Assembly (NCBI GenBank): GCA_001816655.1
Contig: MHCP01000030.1
Location: 69,623 to 133,622 of the forward strand
Source of the DNA: Candidatus Woykebacteria bacterium RBG_13_40_15
GTDB taxonomy: Bacteria > Patescibacteriota > Microgenomatia > Woykebacterales > RBG-16-39-9b
Direction: 5' to 3'
Length of the DNA stretch: 64,000 bases
In this document: positions 13,721 to 62,050 of the stretch, piece after piece
Numbering within the stretch: the first letter of the stretch is position 1
Layout: each line of letters starts with the position of its first letter
The notes under the pieces: generated by a model
Told to the model about the DNA's origin: nothing
The model's database searches: none
What the model saw: only the letters and a program-made list of their open reading frames with translations
Made by a program: the position numbers and the translations under genes

Positions 13721-13789
13721 ATAAGGTTTGCCGAAGAAAGGCTAAGGGCGGCCTGGAAAAGGTCGCCCTTGCATAGACGTTCGCTGGAA

Positions 13790-14224
13790 CTACGACGGGA
13801 CTACCAGTAGCTGACGTGTTCGTTCGTTAGTGACGAGCCAGCTAGCCATCTCCTTTATGGCAGCTCTCTCCTGTTCACCTACTCGACTTTCATAATACCT
13901 TAGAGATTCCTCTCTAGCAGTATCGATCACGCGCATGCGGCTACTACCAGCTCGGTGTATCGTCTCAACGATACCCAACAAGATCCAGGTAAGAAACCCG
14001 CTGACCTGCTGGCAGTAAGGAAAGGCTGGGGACCGTTCGACAAAACTGAAGCCCTCAAACAGACCCGAGTATTCGTTCTCGAATTGCTCACGAAGCAGTC
14101 TTATCGCTTCCGCCCATTTCCCATCATTTAGCGTGAGATCAAGGCCTTTTGGGAGACAGAACAGAAGCATGGACAGGAATTGAAGACTCCCAATCCTGTT
14201 TCCAGTTGTGGGTGCTGTAGTCAT
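13790..14224 (-). CDS. hypothetical protein on a GC-rich islet
   Basis: 144-aa ORF. Local GC clearly above the flanks. Upstream tggtataat and RBS ggaaggaaggtg. Confidence 0.45.
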   Translation of the reverse strand: MTTAPTTGNRIGSLQFLSMLLFCLPKGLDLTLNDGKWAEAIRLLREQFENEYSGLFEGFSFVERSPAFPYCQQVSGFLTWILLGIVETIHRAGSSRMRVIDTAREESLRYYESRVGEQERAAIKEMASWLVTNERTRQLLVVPS

Positions 14225-14392
14225 CTGCTCACCTTCCTTCCGTCAGTAATACCCAACCAACGCGCTAATTATACCATAGGGTATGATTAAAGAAGAGATT
14301 ACACGTCTTGTAAAAGAATTATGGGTGTAGAAAATTTTAGTTTTCGATTTTCCCGTTGGGGGGATTTATTTCAACGGATTAGAGTAAGGGGA

Positions 14393-14959
14393 TTATTTAT
14401 TGTTAATCTCTTTTTGTCTATCATTTAATTCTCTCTCAAATATTTCTTTAGCTGTCTTTGTATAAAAAGTATTTTTGCTGCGAAATTCCCAAATTTCTCT
14501 CGGAGTTGAGCCATAAGATTTTACATCGCTGTAAAAAGATTCTTTGTATGTGTCTGATAAAGTATCGGCATCAATTAGAATTTGCTTTTCTTTCTCCTTT
14601 GGTTCTGTAAATTTGTGAGCAACAACTATGTCAACTATCCTCTCTATTTTGTCTTTGTCGTAATTTACTTTGGTAAGGAGCTCTCTAATAATTTTTGGGG
14701 CTTTTTGGATATGCTCTTGAAGGGCCTTGTTCTTTCTTTCTTCATCCTTCGCAAGTTGAAGCTTTTCCGAAACTTCTGACCAACCAACATCATGTAAAAT
14801 CGCGGCTGGGATTAAGAAGGTAGTGTCTCCTCCCTCACCAGCAATAATCTCCCTCATCGCCTTTTCCACCATTTTCGTGTGAATCAAAAAATCTTTTCTC
14901 TTTGCTTTAAAAAGAAGTGGCTCGACAAGTTTCCAAATTTCTTGATAGCTTTCTTCCAT
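14393..14959 (-). CDS. HD-domain phosphohydrolase
   Basis: 188 aa with the AAILHDVGW HD motif. Confidence 0.65.
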   Translation of the reverse strand: MEESYQEIWKLVEPLLFKAKRKDFLIHTKMVEKAMREIIAGEGGDTTFLIPAAILHDVGWSEVSEKLQLAKDEERKNKALQEHIQKAPKIIRELLTKVNYDKDKIERIVDIVVAHKFTEPKEKEKQILIDADTLSDTYKESFYSDVKSYGSTPREIWEFRSKNTFYTKTAKEIFERELNDRQKEINNK

Positions 14960-14962
14960 AAA

Positions 14963-15640
14963 CTAACTTTCGATTTTTCCGTCGCGGAGTTTAATGATTC
15001 GGCGGCAAGTCTTAGCAATTTCGGGATTGTGAGTAACAAGCACAAACGTCTGATTTTCCTTTTTATTTAGATCTTTTAAGAGAGTGATAATTTCCATTGA
15101 AGTTTGGGTATCGAGTTCGCCAGTTGGTTCATCAGCTAAAATAATTGCCGGTTTATTTACTAGGGCGCGGGCAACCGCTACTCTTTGCTGTTCTCCACCG
15201 GAAAGTTCGTTTGGTTTGTGATTTAGTCTTTTTCCAAGACCAACGTCAGTTAAAATTTCGGTTGCTTCCTTTTTGGCATTATTTTTTCTACCTGAATATT
15301 CAACCGCGAGCATTACGTTTTCCAAAGCCGTCAGAGTCGGGATAAGATTGTACCCTTGAAAAATAAAACCAATTTTTCTTCCGCGGATTTTATAAAGTCC
15401 AGAGATTTTTTCCTTGGAAATTTCTTCCCTATCAAGCCACACCTGTCCTTTTGTTGCAGTATCCAGCGCCCCCATTATATGCATCAGGGTGCTTTTTCCA
15501 GAACCTGATGGACCAATAATTGCTGTGAATTCCCCCTTTTTTATTTGCAGATTTATTCCTTGCAAAGCGCGTACAACATTTTCTTTGCTAAGATCGTAAT
15601 ATTTATGCAGTTCTTTTACTTCCAAAATTACTTCGTCCAT
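14963..15640 (-). CDS. ABC transporter ATP-binding protein (MacB/LolD-like)
   Basis: Walker [10 protein letters not shown], signature [15 protein letters not shown], Walker B ILADEPTG. Confidence 0.85.
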
Positions 15641-16813
15641 TTATTCACTCCTCAAAGCTTGAATTGGATTCAAGCGTGATGCGTACCAAGCAGGGTAAAG
15701 ACCGGCAAACGCACCAAGGAAAGTTGAAAACGCCACCGACCCAATTGCTAGTCTTGGTGTAGTCAAAAATATAATTTGGCCACTAGAAGCCGTAATTGCA
15801 TTAATAATTCGAACAGTTCCCCAGCCTAAAAGAAGGCCCATTAATCCTCCAAGTAGTCCCATTACTGCTGCTTCAAGAACAAACTCTCTTAAAATTCTAA
15901 AATTTGAAGCACCGATTGCTTTTTTGATACCGATTTCGCGAATCCTCTCAGTTACCGACATAATCATTGTATTAATAATAGAGAAACTACCAACGATTAA
16001 AGCGATAAGACCAACAGCGTAAATAATTAAATTGAAAATAGCTACTGAACTGGCAATTTGTTTTTTAAATTCATCTGGAGCTAGCGCTTTTACATCTTTC
16101 ACCTTTTCATTGATCTGCTTTGTTATCTCATTTGGATCGAAACCATCTTTAACCAAGACAGAAATAGAAGTAGCTATATCTTCTTTTTTTACAGACGACC
16201 TGAAAGCGGCTGGCAGTGTATTTAAATAAAGTTCTTGCGCATCCGGGAGATTTATTGAGATTGAATTGTCTGGGGCTGAAAAAGTTTTATCATAAACGCC
16301 TACAACCTCAAAGTCTTTCCCCTTCAGTTTAATTGTGCCCCCGACCTTTGCATTTAATTTTTTAGGCATATCCGAACCTAAAACAGCCTTTCTGATATCA
16401 TTTTTTTGAATATCTCTGCCAGTAGCAATCGTCAACATAGCCGCCGATGGGTCGTCCTTCATCTGATCTGGGTCATAACCTCCAATCGAATCGGGCACAC
16501 CAAAACTTACCCCACTTATATCGTCTTCTTTCAACATTTCGACGCTTGCGTAAGCGTTTTTCACACCTTCAATTTTTTTAATTTCGTCTATTTTTGAAAT
16601 TGAGAGAGGAGTTCCGCCAAAAAAAGACATCCCACTTTTTGCATCTTGGACCGTGATTCTTGTTCCATAATACTCAAGACCGCCTTGAACCAACTTGTTT
16701 AGTTTTTCAGCAAGAGACCCCATTACTACCAAGGCGAAGATACCAATAGCAATACCAAATATCGTCAAAGCACCGCGGATTTTTCGCCTAAAAATGTTTC
16801 GGATTATTTTCAT
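15641..16813 (-). CDS. ABC transporter permease, FtsX/MacB-type
   Basis: 390 aa. N-terminal TM, large periplasmic domain and a C-terminal 3-TM FtsX-like region. Contiguous with the ATPase gene. Confidence 0.75.
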   Translation of the reverse strand: MKIIRNIFRRKIRGALTIFGIAIGIFALVVMGSLAEKLNKLVQGGLEYYGTRITVQDAKSGMSFFGGTPLSISKIDEIKKIEGVKNAYASVEMLKEDDISGVSFGVPDSIGGYDPDQMKDDPSAAMLTIATGRDIQKNDIRKAVLGSDMPKKLNAKVGGTIKLKGKDFEVVGVYDKTFSAPDNSISINLPDAQELYLNTLPAAFRSSVKKEDIATSISVLVKDGFDPNEITKQINEKVKDVKALAPDEFKKQIASSVAIFNLIIYAVGLIALIVGSFSIINTMIMSVTERIREIGIKKAIGASNFRILREFVLEAAVMGLLGGLMGLLLGWGTVRIINAITASSGQIIFLTTPRLAIGSVAFSTFLGAFAGLYPAWYASRLNPIQALRSE

Positions 16814-16886
16814 GAGAATTAATTGTAACTAAAGTAGTGAATACTTACAAGGCTACATTGTCTTTTTAATTGGGCTAAGTAAGAAA

Positions 16887-17822: not shown

Positions 17823-17859
17823 CTATTTATAGTTTACAATAAATACATTTTGTTTTCAG

Positions 17860-19416: not shown

Positions 19417-19568
19417 AATTAAACCAGATTTTTCAAGATTCTACCAGATCCTCTGAAGAAAGGTCAAAGAAGGAAAGGAGTGGGCGCATGAAGAGCACGC
19501 AAGCTAGCCCGACTCAACGGTTTCTGCCCGCTGAAGCCCTCAAAGCTTCGGGTAGCAATTATTTATAG

Positions 19569-28327: not shown

Positions 28328-28436
28328 TTGGCTTTATTTTACGCGAAGTTTATAGGTTTGTCCAGCCTTAAGGGATTGCTTTTTTACTTTAAATATGTTA
28401 TACTATAGGTTTGTGGCGTGGGTAGAAAGGAGTCTC

Positions 28437-28820
28437 ATGCGGAAGTTGAAGGGGGCAGCAGTCTGGGTTTCGTGCACGCTAGTGGTAGTTGTCGTGGTCC
28501 TGGTATTCGTCGAGCAACGGCGGTCGGACCAAGAGAACTCCATTTGGGGGTCGCTAGAAGATCTCCAAATAGCGTCGCTAACAATCCCAACACCGGCACC
28601 AAACTCGATAGTGGGGTGCTATATGGTAGAGCCCGGGGATACAATCGCTGACATCTCAGCAGAGTTCCTCGGAGACGACGACTACTACGGATGGGTTATG
28701 TTCACGAATGACCGCGATCCAATGACCGGCAGTAGTCTCATTCGACCAGGCGATCAACTCCTCATAAAGGGGGCGATTCTGAATACCGAGCGCCTAACGC
28801 CACCACCGTGCCGGCAGTAA
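28437..28820 (+). CDS. membrane-anchored LysM-domain protein on a GC-rich islet
   Basis: YMVEPGDTIADISAEFLG...LIRPGDQLLI fits the LysM pattern. RBS aaaggag 6 nt upstream. The ATG at 28437 is preferred over the longer 28395 start. Confidence 0.55.
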   Translation: MRKLKGAAVWVSCTLVVVVVVLVFVEQRRSDQENSIWGSLEDLQIASLTIPTPAPNSIVGCYMVEPGDTIADISAEFLGDDDYYGWVMFTNDRDPMTGSSLIRPGDQLLIKGAILNTERLTPPPCRQ

Positions 28821-28827
28821 CTTCAAA

Positions 28828-28868
28828 GAGCGGGGAACCAGTTGCACCGATGTAACCAGGCCCCGCTC
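28828..28868. terminator. 8-bp GC stem hairpin (GAGCGGGG...CCCCGCTC) between the convergent LysM and recJ genes
   Basis: Read directly. A T-rich run follows on the + strand. Overlaps the recJ stop codon. Confidence 0.4.
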
Positions 28869-35177: not shown

Positions 35178-35287
35178 ACAAGCAACAAAAGTGTAAGGGA
35201 GAACACTAGTGGTGTCAAGAAAATAAAATGCTCCTTAGTTTATTTATGGTATACTTGCCTCGAAAAGAAGAAAGTGAGGGCGAAAAA

Positions 35288-35551
35288 ATGAAGATCAGGA
35301 AACCCGAAAACCTGACTGAGGCTATCATCTTCGGCGTCGGATTCATTTTCTTCTACGCCTTCACGGTGACAGGCGTCGAAGTGTTGATGGAACGAAGGGC
35401 TGAATCAAAAGGCCGCTCTAAGGCTAAGCAACGTCGAGGCTGGCTTGCGATTACCTTACCAATAGCCCTAATCAAAGGGGCTTGGAAACTCGCCAGGTTT
35501 CTCTTAGGGGAAGGCAGGCGAAAGTTACGAGAAAGGGGGAAGAGTCTATGA
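35288..35551 (+). CDS. small membrane protein on a GC-rich islet
   Basis: MKIRKPENL start with RBS gaaagtgaggg. A TM segment, then a basic tail. A hairpin GGGGCcttgagcaaGCCCC lies downstream near 35718. Confidence 0.4.
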   Translation: MKIRKPENLTEAIIFGVGFIFFYAFTVTGVEVLMERRAESKGRSKAKQRRGWLAITLPIALIKGAWKLARFLLGEGRRKLRERGKSL

Positions 35552-35822
35552 CCAGCAAACGAACCGGCATGAATACGACAGAGCTTCTGATGATTCAGTC
35601 CATGAGAGGCCACAATTGGAGGCTCTGATACCCTATTCACGGCATTTGCCGCTGCAGCCGTGGGCTGCGGGATCGCTATCGACCATCCTCGCTCTCGCTA
35701 CGGAAGAAGCGGAAACCGGGGCCTTGAGCAAGCCCCCTCCTTACTTAAATGTCAAGAAAACGCTATTCCAATGCCCTCACTTTTACTGAGCAAAGTCGAA
35801 ATAAGAATTGAGAATAAATGAT

Positions 35823-39295: not shown

Positions 39296-39592
39296 TTATC
39301 TTGAGCTAAAATGGAGATGGACTTTAAGATCCAAAGCATCTGCCAATTTTCTAATTTGAGAGAGTGATGGGCTAGCAGTTGCTGTTTCCAAACGTGATAT
39401 AACAGCTTGTCCTGTCTTCATTCTTTTTGCAAGCTCCTCTTGCGAAATCTTCTTTTTTATGCGCGCTTCGACTATTGCCTTTACAATCTCGAACTCTGGC
39501 TGTAAATCATCATATTCTTTCCTAACCCCAGGTTTTGCAAGGAGCTTTTTTTTAAATTGTTCGTATGTTGTAAAATTTGGTCTTTTTTTCAT
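39296..39592 (-). CDS. higA: HigA-like XRE-family HTH antitoxin
   Basis: 98 aa, HTH ISQEELAKRMKTGQAVISRLE. Overlaps the upstream toxin gene by 4 nt. Confidence 0.7.
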   Translation of the reverse strand: MKKRPNFTTYEQFKKKLLAKPGVRKEYDDLQPEFEIVKAIVEARIKKKISQEELAKRMKTGQAVISRLETATASPSLSQIRKLADALDLKVHLHFSSR

Positions 39593-39888
39593 ATTTTGTA
39601 TTCTCCTAAACGCTTTTTTGCTGTTTCTATTTCGTTCTTGGGTGTCTTTTGACTTTTCTTTTTGAAAGCATTTACGACTATAATCCTAGATTTCACTTTA
39701 CCTAAAATCAGCCTAATATTTCCAGGTCGTAGTTCCCACAAATTCTTATCCAGCTTCTTTAAATATTTTCCCGGTAAGGTAAATTGATATTGATTAAATA
39801 AATCAAAATATCCAACAATCCTACCTTGATCTGTATCTGCTAAAGTTTCGACAAATTGGTTAACCCGCTTGTCAACAATTACATTCAT
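39589..39888 (-). CDS. higB: RelE/ParE-superfamily toxin, HigB/phage Gp49-like
   Basis: 99 aa. LWELRPGNIRLIL motif typical of Gp49/HigB killer proteins. Toxin lies upstream of antitoxin, the higBA order. Confidence 0.65.
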   Translation of the reverse strand: MNVIVDKRVNQFVETLADTDQGRIVGYFDLFNQYQFTLPGKYLKKLDKNLWELRPGNIRLILGKVKSRIIVVNAFKKKSQKTPKNEIETAKKRLGEYKI

Positions 39889-39989
39889 ATAAATATTATG
39901 ATAAATTTGTCATATTGTCAACTTATTATCTAGCGAAAAAATTATACCATAAAATAAATCATCGCTATTCTAATTTTCTCATTCGTCCT

Positions 39990-40108
39990 AAGCGAAGCCG
40001 AAGGAAAGTAAGAATTTGAGAATGCTTAAGGAGGGGATTTTAGGGCTGATTGGATGGGGTTTCAAACAGTGAGCTTGAAGTTTACACTGAGTGAAATCGA
40101 AGTGAACC
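39990..40108 (+). repeat. copy Y of the dispersed intergenic repeat (complete unit; right flank of the higBA cassette)
   Basis: cgaaggaaagtaagaatttgag...ggattttagggctgattggatggggtttcaaacagtgagcttgaagtttacactgagtgaaatcgaagtgaacc. Same orientation as copy Z. Confidence 0.5.
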
Positions 40109-40205
40109 TGTGTCAAGGAAAGATTGGGAGAATTCTCAATTATCAGTCCATAAAATTAATTTCCTATGTTCAGTCCCTTTAGATTGTACTGTCTCCGTGT
40201 TTTAT

Positions 40206-40505
40206 TTATCTTCCTCTTCCACGCTTTACAATTTTTGCATTTTCATTCATTACACCGAAACGGGTTCCTTCAGTGGCATCCACGGCTTGCTTAACCAGTT
40301 TATTTGGTACTGCAATATAAGGTGTTTTTGTTGACGCAGCTAGTTGTTGTTTTGCATGACCAAAAGCATTTGGATCAACTTCCACCTCAATCGCCTGAGT
40401 TTTAGTCCGAACATCCACTCCTTTGTCAGAAGTGTAATCGGTTTCTTTAATTTGGGCTATTTTGATTGCAATCTGTTTATGCTGTTTACTTTCCACAATA
40501 ATCAC
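40206..40505 (-). CDS. hypothetical protein (99 aa) between the repeat and the restriction-modification (R-M) operon
   Basis: Clean ORF, not recognised. Confidence 0.4.
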   Translation of the reverse strand: MIIVESKQHKQIAIKIAQIKETDYTSDKGVDVRTKTQAIEVEVDPNAFGHAKQQLAASTKTPYIAVPNKLVKQAVDATEGTRFGVMNENAKIVKRGRGR

Positions 40506-40682
40506 CCCCTTACGGGATAGTTTAATATTATTTAATTATTTCAAGATTTTTCCCTCTCTCCCTGAGGTCAAAAGACTACAAAAAGAAAGGCCTGTTTAAA
40601 AATCCATTGTATATATTATACTACTCAAGCGACTAATTTGGAAGATAGAATAACCTTTTTTAGCCTCAAAGTTACCCTTAAT

Positions 40683-41870
40683 TTAGGAAAAAGGTAGTTT
40701 TTGTTGATCTACCCATACTGTTTCTCGTAAATTAACTTTTTGGATATTAAAATCTATTAATGATTTATGAACTTTTTTCTTCTGTATCAAGAAAAGGAAT
40801 TCTTTATTCTGAATGTTGTGTTCGTTTTCCCCTAACCATTCATTCGTCCAAGTCATTGTTGACATAACATTTTTCTTGTAATCCATCTCCAAAATAGAAC
40901 ACGGTAAATTAAGCTCTCGTAAAATTTCCATTATAGCATCAAAGGTGGCTCTTCCATTGTTGCTATAAGACAAAACAACATATTTTGCATTAGTCTTTTT
41001 TATTAGTTCTTTAAGTGCGTTAATAACAACATATCGGCCATTTTTGTCCTTTCGAAACTCCTCAAAAATTGACCCCGCAACTATATCACTTACGTCCTCA
41101 CGTCGATTAGCCGCACCTACCACCTTTGGTTTGTCATTAAGACAGACCGATTTCCAAATATGATAGTAAGAGGCATATCGAACACGTGATGGGGGCATAA
41201 GTTCATTAGAAGAACCATATGGTGGATCATAGTAGGCTAGATCAACCTCTACTTTATCTAGGAGGTTAAAAATATCATCGCAGAAAACCCGATGATCCAT
41301 TTCATCTATTATTAACCTCGGAGCCTCCATTTTCATTACATGGTAAGCGCGGGGGGCCCATTGTTTTAAATAAGAAACGTGGTGCCCTACAGAACTATCT
41401 ACCTTATCCATTGCTAAAATTAGGCTTGTGAGAAGTACTGACTTTTCAATTTCATCTTTTGAAACCTTATCAATTTGCTCACGGATAGCATCAAGCTTCA
41501 TAGTATTATGCAACTGCCACATCTTCTTTCTACCATCTATATCTACAGCACTACCACCGTTAGGTTCTCCACCATAATGTTTCGAAAACCATCCCAACTT
41601 ACCTGGAATTTTATTCAAATTATCAATCAGGGGTAGATAGTAAGATGCTGGTTTCCTATTTAAAAGATAGCATTGCCCAAAAATTTTTGACCATACAGCA
41701 ATATCGTTTGCATAAACAGTATACCCAGCCTTTTTGAATGCTTGAGAAACTCTTGTGGTACCAGAAAAGCCGTCGAATATCGTACTAACATTTAAGGAAG
41801 CTACTAGCTTGAGTAGAATGGGAATTATCTCCCTTTTTGATCCTGTGTACTTAATACCTTCAGTTTGCAT
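40683..41870 (-). CDS. DNA N6-adenine methyltransferase, Dam/D12 class (R-M methylase)
   Basis: N-terminal KYTGSKREI (Y.GSK) and motif IV YYDPPYG. 395 aa. Confidence 0.8.
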   Translation of the reverse strand: MQTEGIKYTGSKREIIPILLKLVASLNVSTIFDGFSGTTRVSQAFKKAGYTVYANDIAVWSKIFGQCYLLNRKPASYYLPLIDNLNKIPGKLGWFSKHYGGEPNGGSAVDIDGRKKMWQLHNTMKLDAIREQIDKVSKDEIEKSVLLTSLILAMDKVDSSVGHHVSYLKQWAPRAYHVMKMEAPRLIIDEMDHRVFCDDIFNLLDKVEVDLAYYDPPYGSSNELMPPSRVRYASYYHIWKSVCLNDKPKVVGAANRREDVSDIVAGSIFEEFRKDKNGRYVVINALKELIKKTNAKYVVLSYSNNGRATFDAIMEILRELNLPCSILEMDYKKNVMSTMTWTNEWLGENEHNIQNKEFLFLIQKKKVHKSLIDFNIQKVNLRETVWVDQQKLPFS

Positions 41871-41919
41871 ATTATTATCCTTCTATCTGATTTTAGCAAA
41901 AGAAAGTATCTATTGTAAG

Positions 41920-42750
41920 TTATATTACTGATTTTTCTTTTGATTGTGGAAATAATTTTAGAATTTCTTCGTGCTTGTCTTTTGGAGAAACAAGAATTTT
42001 TGAAATTAAGTTAATAAGAGACTCATTAATTTTATAGGAACCGCTCAGTAGCTCCCGAAAGTAAGGTTTTGCATTTTCAGTATGTGTCCACAAACCTCTT
42101 TGTAGTGCATTAGCGCTTACTCCACCGTATCTTACCTCAAAAATATACTGACCTTTCTCATTATAGAATTTATATATTGGAAATGTCTGTTTAAGTCCTA
42201 GTTTCCTTGGTGGATAAAACTTGATTTGTCTAACTGATTGGTAAGCGCGAGACAAATCAAATACAACAATTTTGAAGTTTAACTGCTTTTCGTTGTAAAT
42301 TAATGGCAGAACATTCACAGCACCGAAATTCACAAAACATGGTTCGTTCAAAATAATTTTGATTTTGTTTATGTCTTTAATATCCTTGTTAGCTACCACT
42401 TTTTGTAGAAACTTAAACATCGAACTGTCTTTATTCGTTGACAGTTGCAACGGACCAGCGCCATATGTTTTTACGCTGACAGGGATTTCAGATTCAGATT
42501 GAAGGTCTTTAATCCTGATATCTTCTTCAAATTCCTTTGCTCTAAACTTTTCCTTCCCAGTGTGTCGAGCAGAAAAACCATCGACAAACTGATTGATGTA
42601 TTCCGTAAGTGCGATTTCTGCAAGATCTCCGTGTGTTTTGTTTCCTATAACTCGCATGGAGAAAACATTAGCTAGGACGCTGTAAATAATCGGTTGGTTG
42701 CCTCTAAAGCTCTCTTCAAATTTGTTTAAAAACTTATCAAATGAAGACAT
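41920..42750 (-). CDS. putative type II restriction endonuclease (assigned by position between the C and M genes)
   Basis: 276 aa. No family recognised. 3-nt gap to the C gene and 50-nt gap to the methylase. Confidence 0.45.
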   Translation of the reverse strand: MSSFDKFLNKFEESFRGNQPIIYSVLANVFSMRVIGNKTHGDLAEIALTEYINQFVDGFSARHTGKEKFRAKEFEEDIRIKDLQSESEIPVSVKTYGAGPLQLSTNKDSSMFKFLQKVVANKDIKDINKIKIILNEPCFVNFGAVNVLPLIYNEKQLNFKIVVFDLSRAYQSVRQIKFYPPRKLGLKQTFPIYKFYNEKGQYIFEVRYGGVSANALQRGLWTHTENAKPYFRELLSGSYKINESLINLISKILVSPKDKHEEILKLFPQSKEKSVI

Positions 42751-42752
42751 AT

Positions 42753-42968
42753 TTAAGAGTCTTGAAATAAGTCTGCTAATTTCAGATTAAGAGCTGTTGC
42801 TACTTTTTGTATATTCTCGAGGGTAATATTTTTCTCAGCCCTTTCTATCATTCCAATATACGTCCTATGCATGCCAGCCCGATCCGCTAACTCCTCTTGA
42901 GATATTCCAAGTTTTTTTCTTTCCGCTTTGACACGTATAGCAAAACTAAGTAGTACAGAACTTTTCAT
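42753..42968 (-). CDS. R-M controller (C) protein, XRE-family HTH
   Basis: 71 aa. LGISQEELADRAGMHRTYIGMIERAEKNITLENIQKVATALNLKLADLF matches the C-protein family pattern. Confidence 0.75.
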   Translation of the reverse strand: MKSSVLLSFAIRVKAERKKLGISQEELADRAGMHRTYIGMIERAEKNITLENIQKVATALNLKLADLFQDS

Positions 42969-43009
42969 ATCGAGTTAAGTTTATGATAATGCTAACTTTA
43001 GTTCTACAT

Positions 43010-43017
43010 ACTATAGT
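43010..43017. promoter_or_regulatory. C-box-like palindrome ACTATAGT about 42 nt upstream of the C gene, nested in GATAA...TTATC
   Basis: Perfect 8-bp palindrome read from the sequence. Resembles the GACT-N3-AGTC C-box core. Confidence 0.35.
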
Positions 43018-43221
43018 TATCGAAGGAAGAGTTGGTGGTTTATTAGATTTTGGCCTCAAAATCGATTCCGATTGATTTCTCTCTTTAGTTAGATGGAAGA
43101 TGTTAGATTGAAGACTGAAGGCGGGTTGGGAGTTGACAATAATTGGGCAGCCTACTATAATAAGTCCATAAAACTAGGGAATGATCCTAATTCAGGGTCC
43201 TCCCTATTTTTGTTAGCCTAT

Positions 43222-43497
43222 CTAGAACCAAAGCGGATTTAGAAGAGGTTCGCCAAGAGCTTTGGAAATTTTCTTAAGAGTCGCTACCGAGGGCAAAGAG
43301 TGCATTGATTCAATACGAGAAATCACCGGCTGCTTCATACCTACTTTTTTGGCAAGCTCTTCTTGCGATAAATTCTTTTTAATCCGTACTTCAATTAAAC
43401 TTTTTACCAGTTGATATTCCGGCTCCAAATCTTCGTAAGCTTTTTGGATAGCCGTATTTTTCGCCCAGCGTCTTTCAATTTTTTCGAATGGAACCAA
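43222..43497 (-). CDS. HigA-like XRE HTH antitoxin paralogue (orphan)
   Basis: 91 aa, about 45% identical to 39296..39592 (LSQEELAKKVGMKQPVISRIE). Uses a TTG start. Confidence 0.65.
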   Translation of the reverse strand: MVPFEKIERRWAKNTAIQKAYEDLEPEYQLVKSLIEVRIKKNLSQEELAKKVGMKQPVISRIESMHSLPSVATLKKISKALGEPLLNPLWF

Positions 43498-43700
43498 CTT
43501 GATTTTATTTTTTCTCCTAATAAACCCCCTTTACATACTCAAAAATTCGAGGGAATCTTATAACTTTTTTGTTATAAAGTCAACGGTCAATCAAGACAAC
43601 CCGATTTTATCGCTTTGGCAATCAGGCGTCAAATATGTAGGGAAATGGTTCGACAGGCTCACCACTGGGTTGGGAGTTGACTAAAGGTTGACAAAAAGTT
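43498..43700 (-). pseudogene. decayed HigB/Gp49-like toxin remnant upstream of the orphan HigA
   Basis: The minus-strand reading keeps ttaggagaaaaaataa (compare ttaggagaatacaaaatatga, the LGEYKI* end of higB) and gtcgaacca (compare gtcgaaact), but has multiple stops. Confidence 0.4.
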
Positions 43701-43787
43701 TACAATATATTTACAAAGACCCTGTTTCCGAATTGTCACCGTATGGTGCGCGTTCCAAGCTTACGTTTGGATAGGAAGCAGGGTCGC

Positions 43788-44411
43788 TTATTTAAACTCC
43801 CATAAATCTTCAATTTTTTTGGAGCTCTTTAATTCATTTAAATATCTCTTCTCCTTACCTGAAAATACTGAAAATATTGATCCTGCAACCATATCAGCAA
43901 GTTGAATAAGTGTGTTTTGCCTAGATTCCACAAATTTCAAATCTTTAAAAATCTTCTTACTTTTATTGTCCAATTCTCTGCTTAGATATGTGCGAAGCTG
44001 GTCTCTCAACTCCTTTTCACCTCTTTTGTCAAATTTTAATCGTGCGTTTTTTATAGAACCGCTGCTATGCTTTAAAACCTGCATAATAATGTAGTTATAA
44101 AAGTTTTCTTTGTTATTTCGAAGGTGAGAACTTCGAATATTTTGTTTGCCCGCAACAATTGCTCTAATTCGAAATTTGTATGTTTTCACTGTTTCAAAAA
44201 ATAAATCTTTAAATTTTTTATTAGTTTTATTGAATTTAAATTCGTAAAAATCAGAAACTTTCAATTTCCTCCGCAACTCCTTAATTGCAAGGGATGTTTT
44301 CTCTGCTTCTAAATCGTCGTCAAACACAACTAATGCAATAACAAAGACTTTAGTTGATCCTTTATCAATTTTGAATCCTGGGTCTCCTGAATCATCGATA
44401 AAAACAAGCAT
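43788..44411 (-). CDS. DUF3800-family protein
   Basis: 207 aa. N-terminal LVFIDDSGD and C-terminal IQLADMVAG, characteristic of DUF3800. Confidence 0.6.
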   Translation of the reverse strand: MLVFIDDSGDPGFKIDKGSTKVFVIALVVFDDDLEAEKTSLAIKELRRKLKVSDFYEFKFNKTNKKFKDLFFETVKTYKFRIRAIVAGKQNIRSSHLRNNKENFYNYIIMQVLKHSSGSIKNARLKFDKRGEKELRDQLRTYLSRELDNKSKKIFKDLKFVESRQNTLIQLADMVAGSIFSVFSGKEKRYLNELKSSKKIEDLWEFK

Positions 44412-46243: not shown

Positions 46244-46346
46244 AAATTTATTGATGATTTATAATAATTGTAGCAAAATGGGAATGGAAAGGGCAGGTGC
46301 GGTATCTCGTCCTTTCCATCATTAGCAATCTATGTTGTCGACGTCG

Positions 46347-46745
46347 CTACGCTGCTTCCTCCTCCACGTAGAGCGCGCAGTCCTGAACGGAAGCAACCTT
46401 GATCCGAATATGCCGAGGGTCAGTCCAGAACTCCCTGATCGCAACGATGCACCGCTTCCCTTGGTCGGTCCTTCTCTTCAGAGCGTTGTATAGCCAGGGG
46501 CAGATCAGAAAGTCTCTAAACATGGCTGAGAGAATTATGCCGTCACTAAGGCTGCGTACCCCTCCGTCTCGCAAGAACCTTGTATCTCCACAGTCGAGTT
46601 TCTTTGGAGGTACCTCGTTGATTGAGAACACCTCCACACAACGCACTGCTCCTCGTAATGCATCACCCTGTGTCCGTGCAACTGGAATCGAAATCAACCA
46701 GCTTTGGTCTATCGTCCCTTCATCGGTAAAAATGACTGTAGTCAT
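46347..46745 (-). CDS. hypothetical protein on a GC-rich islet
   Basis: 132 aa ORF, high local GC. Confidence 0.4.
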   Translation of the reverse strand: MTTVIFTDEGTIDQSWLISIPVARTQGDALRGAVRCVEVFSINEVPPKKLDCGDTRFLRDGGVRSLSDGIILSAMFRDFLICPWLYNALKRRTDQGKRCIVAIREFWTDPRHIRIKVASVQDCALYVEEEAA

Positions 46746-46879
46746 AGTTACCCTGTCTCCTCCTATTCTGTTTACCTGGCTTTAGCCGGCTTCTTCTCTT
46801 TCCTCGAACCAGATTTTAACAGATTTGGGATAAAAAATCGAAAATAAAATGCAATCTCTAGCTTTTTACTAGCTTTTAC

Positions 46880-46977
46880 ATGTAGAAAGGAAGAAAGATA
46901 GAAAGGGGGCGCAACCCTTGGGAGAATTGCGCCCCAGTGGTAGAAGGTGGCTTGCTGAAGCGTTTAGCGGCAAGCCA
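46880..46977 (-). terminator. two consecutive GC hairpins downstream of 47030..47404; the first is followed by a U-rich tract on the minus strand
   Basis: GGGGCGCAA-n12-TTGCGCCCC (46906-46935), then TGGCTTGC-n14-GCAAGCCA (46948-46977). Confidence 0.45.
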
Positions 46978-47029
46978 CTGTAGGACCAGTACCCTACGTC
47001 AATCTTCAACCCGAGTCGTAAGGATCCGA

Positions 47030-47404
47030 TTAGGCAGGGACTTTTATCGGCTCCCTACAATCAAGGTTGATTGATAGCCCCAGATCCTTGTAGTGAGCAA
47101 GAACCACCCGGCATCTATCGCTAACTCGAAGCCGCTCATCGTTGTCCCCTGGAACAACCGCATTTAGGTTGTGCCTCTCAGCATCGGGGTACGGCTCGGG
47201 TGCGTAGAAGTAGCTGAACTCGGCGTCCGGGCAGACTTGTCTTATCTCTCTTACCACCGCCCGAACATGGGACGCTATGATCCTCACTTCTCCAGGGGCC
47301 CGCTCAAGCTCCGCTCGCAGCAGTGCAACGCCTGCTTCGATTGACTGCTTCACCGCTTGATCAACCGACTCGAGGGTATCGATTGGGATCATATCAATCT
47401 TCAT
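47030..47404 (-). CDS. hypothetical protein on a GC-rich islet
   Basis: 124 aa ORF, high GC. Confidence 0.45.
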   Translation of the reverse strand: MKIDMIPIDTLESVDQAVKQSIEAGVALLRAELERAPGEVRIIASHVRAVVREIRQVCPDAEFSYFYAPEPYPDAERHNLNAVVPGDNDERLRVSDRCRVVLAHYKDLGLSINLDCREPIKVPA

Positions 47405-47528
47405 TGACCGCTCCTTCCTCGTCTGATTCCCTGCTTCTTAATTAAATTCTAACATTATCAAGTTTTTTGTTCTAGCAAGGAAAAGTTTATTTGACGCAAA
47501 AGCCTCGCGATAATAAACTTAAAGATAG

Positions 47529-49870: not shown

Positions 49871-49885
49871 AATGAAAGGAAAATT

Positions 49886-50329: not shown

Positions 50330-50392
50330 CTAGCCTTCAGAAATTAAAGGAGAGGGCAGGTATCGACTTGTTTTTCCCTCCCCTTGTCCTGC

Positions 50393-50758
50393 TTAGTAGA
50401 GGCCGCCGCTTGGTCTGACTGGCTTTCTTGTTGTTTGGACATAGATTGCTAGTCCTCTGTACATCCTCCAGTCAGCGGCGAGGAAGTGATTAACCCCGGC
50501 TCGCCGAAGAACCCGACACGCCCGAACGACCTCTTCGTCCCAAAGCGTGCTACTGATGGAAGCAGCCCCCGACTTCTCCCACCCTAAGAGAAAGGCGTAG
50601 GTCGAGCCGTCCAACGATATCTCTCCTGGGAAATAGGGATTGTCTAGTACCCAAACCGAACGCGATTCGAAAGAGGTTTGCCCCACCGCACCTATGGTCA
50701 GACGGCACATTTCGCCGCGAACTACTCTCAGCTGTTTTCTTCCTTCAACTGCAACCAT
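50393..50758 (-). CDS. hypothetical protein on a GC-rich islet
   Basis: Start preferred at MVAVEGRK (50758), because AAGGAGG lies 8 nt upstream. The ORF track extends it to 50776. Confidence 0.45.
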   Translation of the reverse strand: MVAVEGRKQLRVVRGEMCRLTIGAVGQTSFESRSVWVLDNPYFPGEISLDGSTYAFLLGWEKSGAASISSTLWDEEVVRACRVLRRAGVNHFLAADWRMYRGLAIYVQTTRKPVRPSGGLY

Positions 50759-50892
50759 GGTGAAAGCCTCCTTCATCGCTTTACCAAGCTACTCCCACGA
50801 CAAGGCTTTTTTATATCTCGTTTGGCGGTTTGATTTTAACATATTTGAAAGGTATTCGTCTACATTATGGGATAAAGTTACTACAGGGAGAT

Positions 50893-51333: not shown

Positions 51334-51515
51334 AGATTTAGAAATCGGTATATTACCCAGTTTATTTTGCGACTTGTTTTGAGTCTTTGTCAATAGAAAT
51401 GAATCACTCTACATTCTTAAATAACAACAAGCAAGCTCTACACATCGGGAAGGGCCTGCAGCTTTTACACCCAGGCCCTTGTGACACTCCTTTCCCCCTT
51501 TTCTTATGCGAAGTC

Positions 51516-51893
51516 TTAGCTGATGTCTCTGAGGTACAAGGCCACTGCTTCGAAACTTGCCTGGCCGTCGCGCTCGGAACCCTTGGCAAGAGCAAAGACT
51601 ACACCGTGAGCACTGTTCATGCCCCGAAGAGCTTCCCACAAGTCTCGGTTGCGAAGAGGTGCGGCTAAGCGGGAGTCACCGTCATTAACTGAGAAATATC
51701 TTGTTCGTCTACTGATAACTCGATGGAACCCCCTAATCCCTTCGTAAACTTCCTTGGGAAATTGGGTCACTTTTCGGCCCATCAAAAAAACGGGCACAAT
51801 TAAGGACCCCTTCTCCCCAAGGGCAGTGATGGTTAGCCACATCTGGCTTTCAGGATCTAGACGCACTGCTTCCTTTCCCGAACTACTAGTCAT
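51516..51893 (-). CDS. hypothetical protein on a GC-rich islet
   Basis: 125-aa ORF. Overlapping plus-strand ORFs also exist here, so the strand is uncertain. Confidence 0.35.
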   Translation of the reverse strand: MTSSSGKEAVRLDPESQMWLTITALGEKGSLIVPVFLMGRKVTQFPKEVYEGIRGFHRVISRRTRYFSVNDGDSRLAAPLRNRDLWEALRGMNSAHGVVFALAKGSERDGQASFEAVALYLRDIS

Positions 51894-52036
51894 CTTTCTC
51901 CTCCTAAACGATGGTCTTGAACGCTATTTTACTATAAAAGGCCAAACATTGATTGAAAAATCAAAGTAAACAAATCAAGCGGGATTGGGGCTAGCGCCTT
52001 TTGCAAATTATAAATTTTTGGGCTTCCTCTAGAGAT

Positions 52037-56068: not shown

Positions 56069-56070
56069 TT

Positions 56071-57402: not shown

Positions 57403-57445
57403 CGTCTAAGATTATATCGATTTGTGGTATTGGAAGCAAGCTAAT

Positions 57446-58048: not shown

Positions 58049-58085
58049 ATTTACCTCCTTAAAGCTTGGGCAGTTATAAATAATT

Positions 58086-59165: not shown

Positions 59166-59339
59166 CGATTTGGTTCAAATTGAACAATACTAGTACCCAA
59201 AAAGATACAAATTTTTTAACAAACCGTCAAGTGGTAGTTTCGAGTTGCGTACCAGTTAGCTTTGTGCTAGCATATTCAATGAATTCAGTTAGAACGTAAG
59301 CCCTGCTTATTTCTTAATTCTGAATTATTAATTAGTAAC

Positions 59340-59714: not shown

Positions 59715-59802
59715 ATGAAAATCTCGAACCTTTATTTCTTTTTCGAAAGGGGGTGAACCAACCAACAGGTTGAATTTCGAAAAAAGATTCAACCTACTAT
59801 AT

Positions 59803-59943
59803 ATGGCTTCAATGTATTGCGTAAAATGCCGCGCCAAGAAAGAGGTTGCAAACCCAGAAAGCGTTACCATGAAGAATGGTAAGAAAGCTTTGCGCGGAAC
59901 ATGTCCAGACTGTGGGACAAAGATGTTCAAGATTGGTGGCTAA
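59803..59943 (+). CDS. small zinc-ribbon protein (46 aa, CVKC...CPDC), missing from the ORF track
   Basis: Hand translation MASMYCVKCRAKKEVANPESVTMKNGKKALRGTCPDCGTKMFKIGG*. A 7-bp hairpin GTTGAAT-n11-ATTCAAC lies just upstream. Confidence 0.5.
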   Translation: MASMYCVKCRAKKEVANPESVTMKNGKKALRGTCPDCGTKMFKIGG

Positions 59944-59971
59944 TTTAGTTTTTGAATTAGTTTTTACCACA

Positions 59972-60008
59972 ACGAAAAACCCCTCGAATTTCATCGGGGG
60001 TTTTTCGT
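59972..60008. terminator. intrinsic terminator, 12-bp stem ACGAAAAACCCC / GGGGGTTTTTCGT (bidirectional)
   Basis: Read directly. A U-tract follows on both strands. Confidence 0.6.
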
Positions 60009-60038
60009 TTGTTGAAAGCTAAACTGTATCTCCTAAAC

Positions 60039-60067
60039 TTGAAATCCCATAGTATTTGTGATATAAT
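60039..60067 (+). promoter_or_regulatory. near-consensus sigma70-type promoter TTGAAA-N17-TATAAT (extended TGTGaTATAAT)
   Basis: Positions 60039-44 and 60062-67. Drives the small GC-rich ORF; the RBS GAGGAGG sits at 60099-60105. Confidence 0.5.
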
Positions 60068-60111
60068 GTAGTTGCGGAAAAATTTAATGTCTACATTTGA
60101 GGAGGAGACGA

Positions 60112-60330
60112 ATGGAAGCATTAGTAAAAGGGTTAGAGGTCATCGCGGGGCTTGCGGCGTTTTATAGCCTACTCTTTGCGGCTGTCGGGGGGATGGTATC
60201 AGCAAACGCAGGAACGTATGGTATGAAGAACACGCGTGCTGAGAACGCGGCGAACCTGCTCTTAACGGTGTTCACAATAGCTCTTGTTGCCTTCCTAATC
60301 ACCTTATGGATCCAATCCTCCACAAGGTAA
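60112..60330 (+). CDS. small two-TM membrane protein on a GC-rich islet
   Basis: MEALVKGLEVIAGLAAFYSLLFAAVGG... Start at the ATG after the GGAGG RBS, rather than the TTG at 60097 used by the ORF track. Confidence 0.5.
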   Translation: MEALVKGLEVIAGLAAFYSLLFAAVGGMVSANAGTYGMKNTRAENAANLLLTVFTIALVAFLITLWIQSSTR

Positions 60331-60366
60331 CATTCTTGGAAGGAGGCGACGGAGGAGAACTGAAAG

Positions 60367-60412
60367 CCCTGCGGAAGTTGCGTTGAACGCAGCCGTAGGG
60401 TTTTTTATTTTT
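60367..60412 (+). terminator. intrinsic terminator CCCUGCGG...CCGUAGGG plus U6AU5
   Basis: 8-bp stem with one G-U wobble, then a T-run. Confidence 0.55.
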
Positions 60413-60431
60413 ATAAATTTAACTTGCCACT

Positions 60432-61250
60432 CTAGTGGATAAAATCTTCGGTTAAGGTAGCTATGTGAACTGGTTCTTCAAGAGGAGTTAAGTGACTGTG
60501 TTCTGGGATAATAATAAGTTCAGATCTCCTTATAGAACTTCTTAGTATTTTGATTCTTTCTAACGGCACGATTATATCTAATTCTCCTGCGATCAATAAT
60601 GTTTCTGCTGCAATCTTCTTGGAAAGCTCAATAAGGTCAGTTTTTAAGTAGCTAAGAGCCGATTCCACTATGACTCTCGATTTAGCCTCTTTAAGATCTT
60701 TTATTCCTGAATTTATAAGTTCTTGCTTTCTCTTATTGCTAACACCCCTAATAAGTAGTTCGCCACCAAGTTTGCTAATCAATTCATTTGCTACCCAGAT
60801 TTTCCTGTATTTCCTTGGTAAAAAGTTTGTGAGTTTGTAATAATCGGCTTCCAAATTTTCTAAGAATCCTTTTCCTGAAATTGCTGGAGAAACCAAAATT
60901 AATTTGTTAATTAGGTTTGGAAACATAGCAGCATATTGGATACCTATAGATCCACCTAAAGAGTGTCCCCACAAGTAAAAGTCTTTTAAACCTAAACTAG
61001 TGACAAAGGAATTAAGAAATAAAGCATAGTTCTTTAAACTGTGAGTTTTGTTTAAAGATTCGGAAAATCCGTAACCAGGCAGATCCAAAAGAATTACTCG
61101 GTGGTTTTCAAAGCATCTAGCAAAAGCAGTTAAGGCTTTGTGATTGCCTCTAAAACCAGGAACTGCCAATAGGGTTGGTTTTAAATGGAGGTTATAAACA
61201 TAGTAAAAAATTTTTGATTCTTCAATATTAATTTGCTTTGACACCATCAA
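60432..61250 (-). CDS. alpha/beta hydrolase (esterase/lipase-like)
   Basis: GHSLGG nucleophile elbow. 272 aa. Confidence 0.75.
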   Translation of the reverse strand: MMVSKQINIEESKIFYYVYNLHLKPTLLAVPGFRGNHKALTAFARCFENHRVILLDLPGYGFSESLNKTHSLKNYALFLNSFVTSLGLKDFYLWGHSLGGSIGIQYAAMFPNLINKLILVSPAISGKGFLENLEADYYKLTNFLPRKYRKIWVANELISKLGGELLIRGVSNKRKQELINSGIKDLKEAKSRVIVESALSYLKTDLIELSKKIAAETLLIAGELDIIVPLERIKILRSSIRRSELIIIPEHSHLTPLEEPVHIATLTEDFIH

Positions 61251-61443
61251 TTTATTATATCAAGGAAATGGAAACAAATTTCAAACCAGCTTCCAACTTG
61301 AAAAACCTATAGCATAATGGTATACTACATCCAACATAACCGCCAAACTAGCGGAAAACGTTAGACTAACGAGGAGGAAACAAGAGAAATGTCGCCAGTA
61401 CACAACGACCCGTTTCTAGGTTGGTGGCTCTGGAAACTAGAGC

Positions 61444-61981
61444 CATGGCAGGCTGGCCTGGTAGCGTTGGCGTAGTCGGTCTTTGGTTCGTCGAAGTCCT
61501 CAGACGCAGGTTCACGACACCGGACTTACCATCTTATGGGCTGTCCATTTTCAAGTGGCACTCTAACTACCTGGGGTACCCTTTTCTGGCTGTGGTAGTA
61601 GGCTCGCTAGCCTTCTACTTCAAAGAGGTAAGCACAGCAACCCCAATAAGCGGGTGGTTGTTCCCAGTCTTCTTCGTGTTGGCTCTCGCGTCGGCTGCTC
61701 TGTTCATCCGGTGGGAGGACCAGAAGAACGGAATCCGCCCTTTCACGAAGCTGAACGCCAATCGGGTTTACAACGCCCTGTTCTGGTTCGCGCCAATAGT
61801 GTACGTACTCATCACGGGGCTCGCGGTACTACTCGGTTATCGGGAAATCCCAAGCGTGGTTGCGCTCGTCGTAGTGCTCTGCCTAGCAATCTTCGCCGGA
61901 ACCCTACTTCTCGATGGCACTGGGTGGAACCCACTACGGGATGAAGTCAAACGCTCGTACCCGAAGTGGAAACTGGATTGA
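61444..61981 (+). CDS. multi-pass membrane protein on a GC-rich islet
   Basis: Five hydrophobic helices. The ORF track begins at a TTG at 61421. A Trp-rich 28-aa mini-ORF (61389..61475) overlaps the start. Confidence 0.4.
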
Positions 61982-62050
61982 CTGGAGTGGAGATCGAAAG
62001 CCTCGCGGAAGTTGCGCAAGCAGCGGAAGCGGGGCTTCTCGGTTTATTGA

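Follow-up and report, generated by a model that had tools for sequence, protein, structure and literature searches.

Nine small GC-rich gene cassettes of foreign composition scattered among housekeeping genes of an AT-rich Candidatus Woykebacteria genome

INTRODUCTION

The genomes of the Candidate Phyla Radiation (CPR, or Patescibacteria) are small and carry many unannotated genes, and their mode of gene gain is poorly understood. In this study, we describe nine short GC-rich genes, each with expression signals of its own, in a 64-kb part (the window) of a 144,797-bp contig of the CPR member Candidatus Woykebacteria bacterium RBG_13_40_15. A sequence-only reading of the window had described GC-rich segments as single-gene expression cassettes, and had proposed that they were recently acquired, possibly from a high-GC donor, or that they formed a family of mobile mini-elements. 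The nine genes are named here S1 to S8, S4 being made up of S4a and S4b; L numbers stand for fetched loci (49 in all) and P numbers for homologous protein representatives.

RESULTS

Nine genes of outlying composition

The mean GC content is 0.400 over the whole window and 0.390 outside the GC-rich segments, whereas it is 0.486-0.550 in the eight named segments (the minimum, 0.486, being that of 60090-60420) and 0.53 in a mini-segment. GC content by codon position was computed on 77 non-overlapping open reading frames (ORFs) of the window. A per-gene outlier test on the GC content of third codon positions (GC3; robust z > 3, median 0.33, standard deviation derived from the median absolute deviation 0.054) returned exactly nine genes, and these are identical to the ORFs of the segments noticed in the sequence-only reading, whose claim of local GC enrichment is borne out. 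The two GC3 ranges do not overlap, host genes having 0.25-0.44 (median 0.33) and the nine outliers 0.52-0.65; the overall GC content of the cassette genes is 0.48-0.55. They make up about 12% of the genes in the 64 kb, occur on both strands between 13.7 and 62 kb, and encode 72-178 amino acids (aa), to which two mini-ORFs of 26 aa (19488-19568 and 35548-35628) may be added. All nine products are annotated as hypothetical proteins. They are mutually unrelated, as had been claimed (best cross-match E = 0.33), and compared with host proteins their Arg content is doubled and their Lys and Asn contents are roughly halved. The description of many of them as small membrane proteins holds for four of the nine (S2, S3, S7, and S8), which have transmembrane (TM)-like segments, and not for the remaining five. 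The neighbors are housekeeping genes, encoding a P-type ATPase, an HD protein, GluRS and AsnRS, RecJ, an ABC transporter, a PEBP-family protein, SecD and SecF, a DUF3048 protein, and a ChlI-like ATPase; SecD of the window is 74-75% identical to SecD of other Woykebacteria-like genomes.

Architecture of the cassettes

Each cassette is laid out as a unit of its own, with a -10 element, a strong Shine-Dalgarno (SD) sequence 5-12 nucleotides (nt) before the ATG, a single short ORF, and a hairpin rich in GC at the 3′ end. S1 (13743-14276, reverse strand) encodes a soluble alpha/beta protein of 144 aa (coding sequence 13790-14224; GC 0.50, GC3 0.52) that is annotated as OGY22930.1 from an internal Met. 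Its extended -10 element TGgTATAAT lies at about 14268-14276, its SD sequence is GGAAGGAAGG, and its 3′ hairpin lies at about 13743-13770. S2 (28399-28868, forward strand) encodes 127 aa (28437-28820; GC 0.54, GC3 0.61) behind a -10 element TATACT at 28399-28404 and the SD sequence AAAGGAG, and ends in a hairpin at 28828-28868 that abuts the RecJ stop codon. S3 (35250-35745, forward strand) encodes a small membrane protein of 87 aa (35288-35551; GC 0.48-0.52), with the extended -10 element TGgTATACT, the SD sequence GTGAGGG, and a GC-rich 3′ tail. The S3 stop codon overlaps (ATGA) with the 26-aa ORF at 35548-35628, and about 110 nt of untranslated GC-rich sequence come after this ORF.

The next four cassettes all lie on the reverse strand. 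S4a (46286-46818) encodes a soluble protein of 132 aa (46347-46745; GC 0.52, GC3 0.57), with the SD sequence AGGAGGAG and a 3′ hairpin at about 46286-46317, and S4b (46906-47451) a soluble protein of 124 aa (47030-47404; GC 0.54, GC3 0.58), with the extended -10 element TGtTAGAAT, the SD sequence GGAAGGAG, and two 3′ hairpins, the second at 46906-46935. S5 (50348-50862) encodes 121 aa when read from the SD-preceded ATG (50393-50758; GC 0.54, GC3 0.57), its ORF extending to 50776; its extended -10 element is TGtTAAAAT, its SD sequence AAGGAGG, and its 3′ hairpin lies at about 50348-50384. S6 (51450-51959) encodes a soluble protein of 125 aa (51516-51893; GC 0.51, GC3 0.52), with the -10 element TATAGT, the SD sequence AGGAGGAG, and a 3′ hairpin at about 51450-51480.

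The last two cassettes are on the forward strand. S7 (60039-60410) encodes a 72-aa protein with two TM-like segments (60112-60330; GC 0.50, GC3 0.56); it has the promoter motif TTGAAA-N17-TATAAT with TG at 60039-60067, the SD sequence GAGGAGGAG, and a canonical terminator hairpin with a U-tract at 60362-60410. S8 (61298-62045) carries a frameshifted gene for a multi-pass membrane protein (61389-61981; GC 0.55, GC3 0.65), in which 28 N-terminal codons (61389-61475) are followed by a body at 61445-61981, annotated as a protein of 178 aa (OGY22987.1). Its signals are TTGAAA-N17-TATACT with TG at 61298-61326, the SD sequence GAGGAGGA, and a 3′ hairpin at 61991-62045. Between S7 and S8 lies an alpha/beta-hydrolase gene of host-like GC content (60432-61250, reverse strand; GC 0.34; Pfam Abhydrolase_1, E = 1.9e-22). 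The 5′ arm of the S7 terminator contains the 21-nt motif GAAAGCCCTGCGGAAGTTGCG (60362-60382, forward strand), which recurs at 61996-62016 in the S8 terminator. This common arm, GAAAGCCYNGCGGAAGTTGCG, has two matches in the window where none is expected, and the two copies are direct repeats on either side of the hydrolase gene and S8.

Expression signals

By eye, a TGn-extended -10 element was seen in seven of the nine cassettes, and good -35 boxes stand at S7 and S8, the consensus promoter motif previously placed at 60039 being confirmed. However, promoter-like matches between 45 and 63 kb are not enriched (33 against 32.6 in shuffles), so that position, and not a statistical test, is the basis for calling promoters; of the earlier claim of TGnTATAAT and TATAAT promoters, the presence of the motifs stood and a statistical excess did not. 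The translation signals of the cassettes are stronger than those of the host genes themselves. An SD core of at least 4 nt, corresponding to the GGAGG-type ribosome-binding sites described before, is present in 9/9 cassettes, but no such core was found in 37 of 59 host genes (Mann-Whitney p = 4e-5), even though every candidate start within the first 40 codons was tried for them; the 3′ end of the 16S rRNA of the organism lies outside the window. The GC-stem hairpins were found 3′ of all nine cassettes, with z about -4 in the two tested, and terminator-like sites number 26 against 18.1 ± 4.0 expected. From these motifs, the cassettes are predicted to be independent transcription units. Their description as self-contained single-gene expression units of foreign composition is supported by their GC content, GC3, dinucleotide signature (see below), amino-acid usage, and SD strength.

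Coding status

The GC-rich segments are genuine protein-coding genes. Against composition-matched shuffles, the individual ORF lengths have p values of 0.004 to 0.2 and a joint value of about 1e-15, length alone being non-significant for S3 (423/2000 shuffles) and S7 (245/2000). Moreover, the cassette ORFs have the coding pattern of higher GC at first (GC1) than at second (GC2) codon positions together with a high GC3, which overlapping antisense ORFs do not have, and alignments of the cassette homologue families show protein-like conservation. For S5 and its orthologue P0009, the nonsynonymous (dN) and synonymous (dS) distances are 0.32 and 0.65 (dN/dS about 0.5).

Protein families and predicted structures

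An exhaustive HMMER search of 1.84 billion (1.84e9) protein representatives found homologue families for five of the nine proteins, with about 20 representatives for S1, about 13 for S8, and few for S2, S4a, and S5. The S2 homologues P0007 and P0011 have 68% and 50% identity and the S5 homologue P0009 has 56%; S4a has one distant homologue, P0045 (34% identity, E = 8e-4), which is a GC outlier as well (0.536 against 0.39-0.42). Searching with a profile of the S1 alignment enlarged that family by only a few members. No significant family was obtained for any of the nine proteins from Pfam, PHROGs, NCBIfam, or PADLOC.

The AlphaFold2 model of the S1 family is confident (predicted local distance difference test, pLDDT, 92; predicted template modeling score, pTM, 0.85) and shows a soluble alpha/beta protein whose core is winged-helix-like. 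The best fold matches of the model, none of them significant, were a phage protein annotated as a SocA-like Panacea antitoxin (TM-score 0.51/0.56, E = 0.09), a chain of the DarTG complex (TM-score 0.49, E = 0.12), and a Sulfolobus virus protein. Pfam matched none of the 18 S1-family members searched, and the DUF4065 profile none of these 18 at E ≤ 1. A role as a winged-helix or antitoxin-like binder is conceivable for S1.

S2 consists of an N-terminal membrane anchor and a probable, divergent LysM domain. The LysM assignment made previously holds at the level of the family, in which five of six members match the LysM profile (best 3.1e-6), but the window copy itself remains below the cut-off (E = 0.022; 15.1 bits against 20.9 bits). 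The S2-family profile matches the LysM domains of Kbp (1.4e-4) and Ecp6 (1.3e-3), and a JGI relative of S2 is named ‘LysM repeat protein’. S3 has one TM-like segment. The AlphaFold2 model of S8 has a pLDDT of 77 and no match among solved folds. The SD-bearing 28-codon ORF of S8, whose peptide is MSPVHNDPFLGWWLWKLEPWQAGLVALA*, matches the N-terminus of the S8 family with a score of 72 (shuffles 23 ± 4.8), the remainder of the gene being in another frame and the GenBank protein beginning at an internal Met; the gene could be a pseudogene or yield a truncated product, or the frameshift could be an indel introduced during assembly. S4a, S4b, S5, and S6 are soluble and offer no functional clues. 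For the membrane and LysM proteins, an envelope- or interaction-related function is probable.

GC content across hosts and composition beyond GC

The S1 family, in which protein identity is only about 30%, has a gene GC of 50-53.5% throughout hosts of 38-72% GC. In AT-rich hosts, the values are 0.50 in the window (host 0.40), 0.503 in a member of the Nealsonbacteria (L029; host 0.38, neighbors 0.34-0.42), and 0.535 in L039 (host 0.40, neighbors 0.34-0.43). In GC-rich hosts, the gene has 0.535 in L041 (neighbors 0.63-0.75; host of L041 and L042 0.72) and 0.506 in L045 (neighbors 0.58-0.70; host 0.62-0.68, contig 62.6% GC). The finding of the S1 family across unrelated hosts agrees with the horizontal spread proposed earlier, but a high-GC donor is unproven, since the S1 relatives in two high-GC genomes are themselves outliers there (0.51-0.535 against 0.61-0.75). 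Homologues of S2, S4a, S5, and S8 have a GC content of 0.52-0.54 in hosts of 0.39-0.48. When pooled, the window cassettes have a GC content of 52.8%, their homologues in AT-rich hosts one of 52.7%, and the S1 relatives in GC-rich hosts one of 52.4%.

In two of the GC-rich loci (L041 1-2177 and L042 96-2856), an HD/HD_assoc_2 gene (500 aa) follows the S1-family gene closely and a 215-aa ORF lies upstream of it, the trio forming an island of about 53% GC and at least 2.8 kb in a genome of about 72% GC; the junction of the L041 island is identical in the ENA, JGI, and Logan assemblies. S1 of the window likewise adjoins a small HD-domain gene, of host-like GC content and 168 nt apart, which may be coincidence. 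In L045 (6753-15129), the S1-family gene P0037 (GC 0.51) is embedded, in the opposite orientation, in a cluster of VirB4/TraG-like and TrbL-like genes, which suggests that this relative is carried on a conjugative element.

The composition is foreign beyond GC content. The symmetrised dinucleotide signature of the nine genes is at a distance of 0.135 from that of the host, compared with a null of 0.039 ± 0.0125 (maximum 0.078) from equal-size samples of host genes. The distance is 0.067 between halves of the nine, which is about noise, and 0.043 to the homologues in other AT-rich hosts; mid-GC coding DNA may converge in signature, so that this agreement is supportive and not decisive. The pooled GC1, GC2, and GC3 are 56.7, 44.1, and 57.6, against 59.4, 41.0, and 57.0 expected for a genome of 52.8% GC from the regression coefficients of Lawrence and Ochman, which reproduce the host genes well; by this measure the pooled cassettes look equilibrated for a genome of about 53% GC.

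Occupancy in relatives and age of the cassettes

Three loci from three JGI metagenomes (L036, L037, and L038) contain a region syntenic to 25-37 kb of the window, and in all three an S2 homologue lies in the same gap between AsnRS and RecJ. In comparison with the sister lineage, S2 has 48% aa identity and the flanking proteins 76-87%; at the DNA level, the promoter region of S2 is about 93% identical and the coding sequence about 52%. In L044, a PBP gene (81% aa identity) is followed downstream by the S5 homologue P0009 (56%, GC 0.525), and the first bases of the locus, upstream of the PBP gene, encode the C-terminus of an S6 homologue (FEKVALYLRDIS). Between the window and its sister lineages, dS of neighboring genes runs from 0.46 to above 1, and dN of these cassettes is about 3-fold that of neighboring genes. 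Judging from the diverged orthologues at the same junctions in sister genomes, S2, S5, and S6 predate the splits from the sister lineages. Since diverged homologues of S2, S5, and S6 occur at the same junctions in independent assemblies, the assembly chimerism against which the sequence-only reading had cautioned is very unlikely.

The block of S7, hydrolase, and S8 presents a contrast. About 2 kb of the window (about 60011-62050) lie here between ChlI and a DUF5679 gene and are missing from L002 and L003 (SecD 74-75% identical), where the ChlI stop codon directly precedes the terminator and the DUF5679 gene. This block, at least, is an insertion relative to these closer relatives. In the more distant L035, an S8-family gene (34% identity, GC 0.517, GC3 0.63) occupies the same variable spot between ChlI and DUF5679 with different neighbors. 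The small gene at 59809-59994 (reverse strand) is a DNA-level homologue of the zinc-ribbon DUF5679 gene of L002, L003, and L035 and marks the conserved edge of this variable spot; Pfam does not find this domain in the window copy. The gap of S3 is occupied in L036 by a DUF4349 gene. The earlier notion of recent acquisition is only partly borne out: the S7-hydrolase-S8 block is absent in closer relatives, but the notion does not hold for S2, S5, and S6, which stand at sister-genome junctions with 48-56% aa identity. Among relatives chosen by SecD irrespective of their GC content, one outlier was found in about 108 kb, against nine in the 64 kb here. A metagenome scan with a 499-aa neighbor protein returned non-syntenic relatives only and was uninformative on S4 to S6.

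Other features of the window and of related contigs

A mini GC-rich patch (19446-19568, forward strand; GC 0.53) has the SD sequence GGAAAGGAG and a candidate 26-aa ORF at 19488-19568 (MKSTQASPTQRFLPAEALKASGSNYL). The window also contains an AT-rich accessory patch (39296-44411, GC 0.30-0.37) with a Gp49/HigB-like and HTH_3 pair (39296-39888), a D12 adenine methyltransferase gene (40683-41870), an HTH_3 gene (43222-43497), and a DUF3800-domain gene (43788-44411, reverse strand; Pfam E = 1.4e-16) that is abutted by a DUF3800-IX RNA motif (Rfam RF02968, 68 bits; 43718-43789, forward strand). This patch is the usual low-GC acquired DNA and contrasts with the GC-rich cassettes. Further small GC-rich ORFs lacking Pfam matches are present on CPR-like contigs (L029 462-911, L031 8289-8576, L035 1832-2158, and L001 11498-11875), and L046 has at 2144-3729 four consecutive GC-rich ORFs (0.47-0.56 GC), mostly for membrane proteins; the GC-rich ORFs of these five contigs are unrelated to the nine of the window.

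DISCUSSION

Since the composition of the cassettes is foreign and mutually consistent (about 53% GC, with GC1, GC2, and GC3 to match), we infer a horizontal origin and a common pool. The explanation that we favor, at a probability of roughly 55%, is that they are moron-like, fast-evolving accessory genes that were horizontally acquired one by one from a mid-GC gene pool. Single genes would have been acquired at different times and not in one event, from a pool that would also supply other CPR lineages and some unrelated bacteria. They would land in the intergenic gaps between conserved housekeeping genes and act like phage morons within a cellular chromosome, as independently expressed add-ons that come and go at variable spots and change several-fold faster than the genes around them.

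Several results weigh against this explanation. S3, S4b, S6, and S7 matched only themselves among the protein representatives searched. A neighbor scan that covered part of the window ORFs revealed neither an integrase or transposase nor an att-like site or target-site duplication next to the cassettes; IMG/VR scans with S1, S2, and S8 gave no match, and neither did tblastn searches of phage and plasmid records with S1- and S8-family proteins. In about 10 contexts, no family member had a GC content equal to that of its host, and no donor was found. Moreover, the pooled cassettes show no GC3 deficit of the kind expected from amelioration of genes from a higher-GC donor, and the S8 relatives keep a GC3 of about 0.64 at deep divergence. 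Given the long residence of S2, S5, and S6 and the absence of a GC3 lag, maintenance of the composition in place fits at least as well for these genes.

The main alternative, conceivable although on balance unlikely, is that the cassettes are vertically inherited, lineage-specific, fast-evolving genes in which a gene-specific force keeps the GC content at about 53%, for example selection on the stability or the translation of short monocistronic mRNAs, or gene conversion with a GC bias at variable spots prone to recombination; horizontal transfer would then have had a minor role. This would account for the genes of S2, S5/S6, and the S8 family at the same junction or variable spot, which at 34-56% protein identity keep a GC3 of 0.57-0.65 in both lineages compared, for codon positions that are equilibrated and not ameliorating, and for an S2 promoter region that has stayed nearly identical to that of the sister beside a strongly diverged coding sequence; nor has a donor or a vehicle been found. 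However, in the 62-72% GC genomes, where the S1 family stands at 0.51-0.535, such a force would have to lower the GC content instead of raising it. The patchy occupancy, with different genes at the same spot, and a dinucleotide signature that is foreign beyond GC content also argue against it, and the GC step matches the gene boundaries too sharply for gene conversion.

A single kind of gene-sized mobile element with one shared mechanism, for example an unrecognised recombinase and its site, or reverse-transcribed messages inserted downstream of resident promoters, appears improbable. The architecture is uniform in all nine cassettes, which lie at hot spots, and the foreign composition is confined approximately to the transcribed part, the S2 promoter being host-like and conserved; the S7 and S8 hairpins have in common the 21-nt arm that chance does not predict. 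On the other hand, this motif occurs neither in the other seven cassettes nor in any of the 49 loci fetched, the insertion ages of the cassettes differ, and no recombinase or reverse transcriptase adjoins them among the neighbors scanned. All-versus-all blastn of the segments against each other and against the window gave chance-level matches of 12-29 nt only, and the segments have no termini, inverted repeats, or target-site duplications in common. The proposal of a family of mobile mini-elements did not hold up, the 21-nt motif of S7 and S8 being the sole exception to this lack of common sequence. A miniature inverted-repeat or insertion sequence-type family was rejected for want of similar copies, terminal inverted repeats, and target-site duplications. 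Phage genes were not found next to the cassettes, and the cassettes themselves had no PHROG matches.

In AT-rich genomes, islands of high GC content are classically indicative of RNA genes, and it could be argued that the segments are structured noncoding RNA genes or regulatory regions whose ORFs are a by-product of the scarcity of AT-rich stop codons. Several cassettes are indeed overlapped by long antisense or alternative-frame ORFs, and the ORF lengths of S3 and S7 are individually non-significant. We nevertheless regard this as very improbable. Rfam returned nothing in the segments even at E ≤ 1, its only matches being a tRNA-Gln and the DUF3800-IX motif elsewhere in the window, and the fold z-scores of the segments (-2.6 to +0.3) are like those of control genes, except in the terminator region between S4a and S4b. 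With no Rfam match and with fold energies like those of control genes, a structured noncoding RNA was rejected; the GC content by codon position, the SD sequence with its start codon, the protein families, a dN/dS below 1, and a confidently predicted fold all speak for proteins. That the GC steps are assembly or binning artefacts, contaminant fragments being mis-joined into a CPR contig, is scarcely credible, for although this is a metagenome-assembled genome at about 15x coverage and the S8 frameshift could be a local error, host sequence lies on both sides of each patch within one contig, the same junctions occur in the assemblies of other samples (L036, L037, and L038 for S2; L044 for S5/S6), and nine precise gene-sized mis-joins with host-type promoters are implausible.

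Horizontal transfer of atypical genes and moron-like units are already known. What is unusual here is that the genes are GC-richer than the host, reach a density of about 12% of genes, have translation signals stronger than those of the host, and, in one family of about 30% identity, keep a constant GC content across hosts of 38-72%; in the literature that we searched, we found no account of such cassettes from CPR genomes. Both the GC-rich direction and the constancy run counter to the common view that acquired genes are rich in AT and move toward the composition of the host. The S1 family, with its constant GC content in hosts of 38-72% GC at about 30% identity and with no compositionally native home found, would be explained if the cassettes were the footprint of an undescribed gene pool or vehicle of about 53% GC and strong SD signals that seeds single genes into intergenic hot spots of both CPR and unrelated 62-72% GC bacteria, or of a mechanism that actively keeps small genes at about 53% irrespective of the mutational bias of the host; we regard this wider proposal as speculative and rather doubtful. 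Four of the nine products are predicted membrane proteins, one of them with a probable LysM (peptidoglycan-binding) domain, which would fit a cell-surface role in a presumed episymbiont. If the pattern is general, per-gene GC3 outlier scans would offer a simple means of extracting this accessory layer across CPR genomes, of seeking its source, and of separating transfer from maintenance; if it is merely sporadic transfer of hypothetical genes, the interest is modest.

Among known systems, integron cassettes lack promoters, form arrays beside intI, and have attC sites with conserved cores at their ends. The window cassettes resemble them as single-ORF units of diverse function, each with an imperfect 3′ hairpin, but they bear promoters, are scattered over 48 kb, and have no common 3′ site. 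An integron-cassette reading was rejected on account of the missing common 3′ site, the heterogeneous hairpins, and the cassettes' own promoters, and no integron integrase was present among the neighbors scanned. With regard to S1, Panacea is the SocA-like antitoxin domain DUF4065 (PMC8832971). The S1 model resembles a SocA-like Panacea protein, though non-significantly, and the S1 relative in L041 directly precedes an HD gene; in contrast, the window copy of S1 is monocistronic with no operon partner, and the tight S1-HD pair occurs only in L041 to L043.

ORFans are described, reportedly by Daubin and Ochman, as short, fast-evolving, and taxonomically restricted genes. The cassettes agree with them in being short (72-178 aa), in having few or no homologues, and in a dN about 3-fold that of their neighbors, and differ in being GC-rich and in having translation signals stronger than those of host genes. 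Relative to the host, both ORFans and acquired genes tend to be richer in AT. The framework of compositionally atypical acquired genes and their amelioration is said to go back to Lawrence and Ochman. Deviant GC content, GC3, and dinucleotides, a patchy distribution, and a location between conserved genes are what such genes and the cassettes have in common; the cassettes, however, exceed the host in GC content by 13 points, and their GC3 does not lag although they have persisted through speciation.

The closest parallel is with the phage ‘morons’, a term attributed to Hendrix and co-workers. A phage moron is an extra gene relative to syntenic relatives, with deviating GC content, its own promoter and terminator, and horizontal spread (PMC3594210). 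Like morons, the cassettes have promoter and terminator motifs of their own and a GC content of 0.48-0.55 against 0.39 around them, and the S7/S8 block and the occupant of the S3 gap are extra genes in the same sense. Unlike simple strain-specific add-ons, S2 and S5/S6 are shared with sister lineages, and all nine cassettes sit not in a phage or prophage but among the housekeeping genes of a bacterial chromosome, such as those for aminoacyl-tRNA synthetases, RecJ, SecDF, and ChlI.

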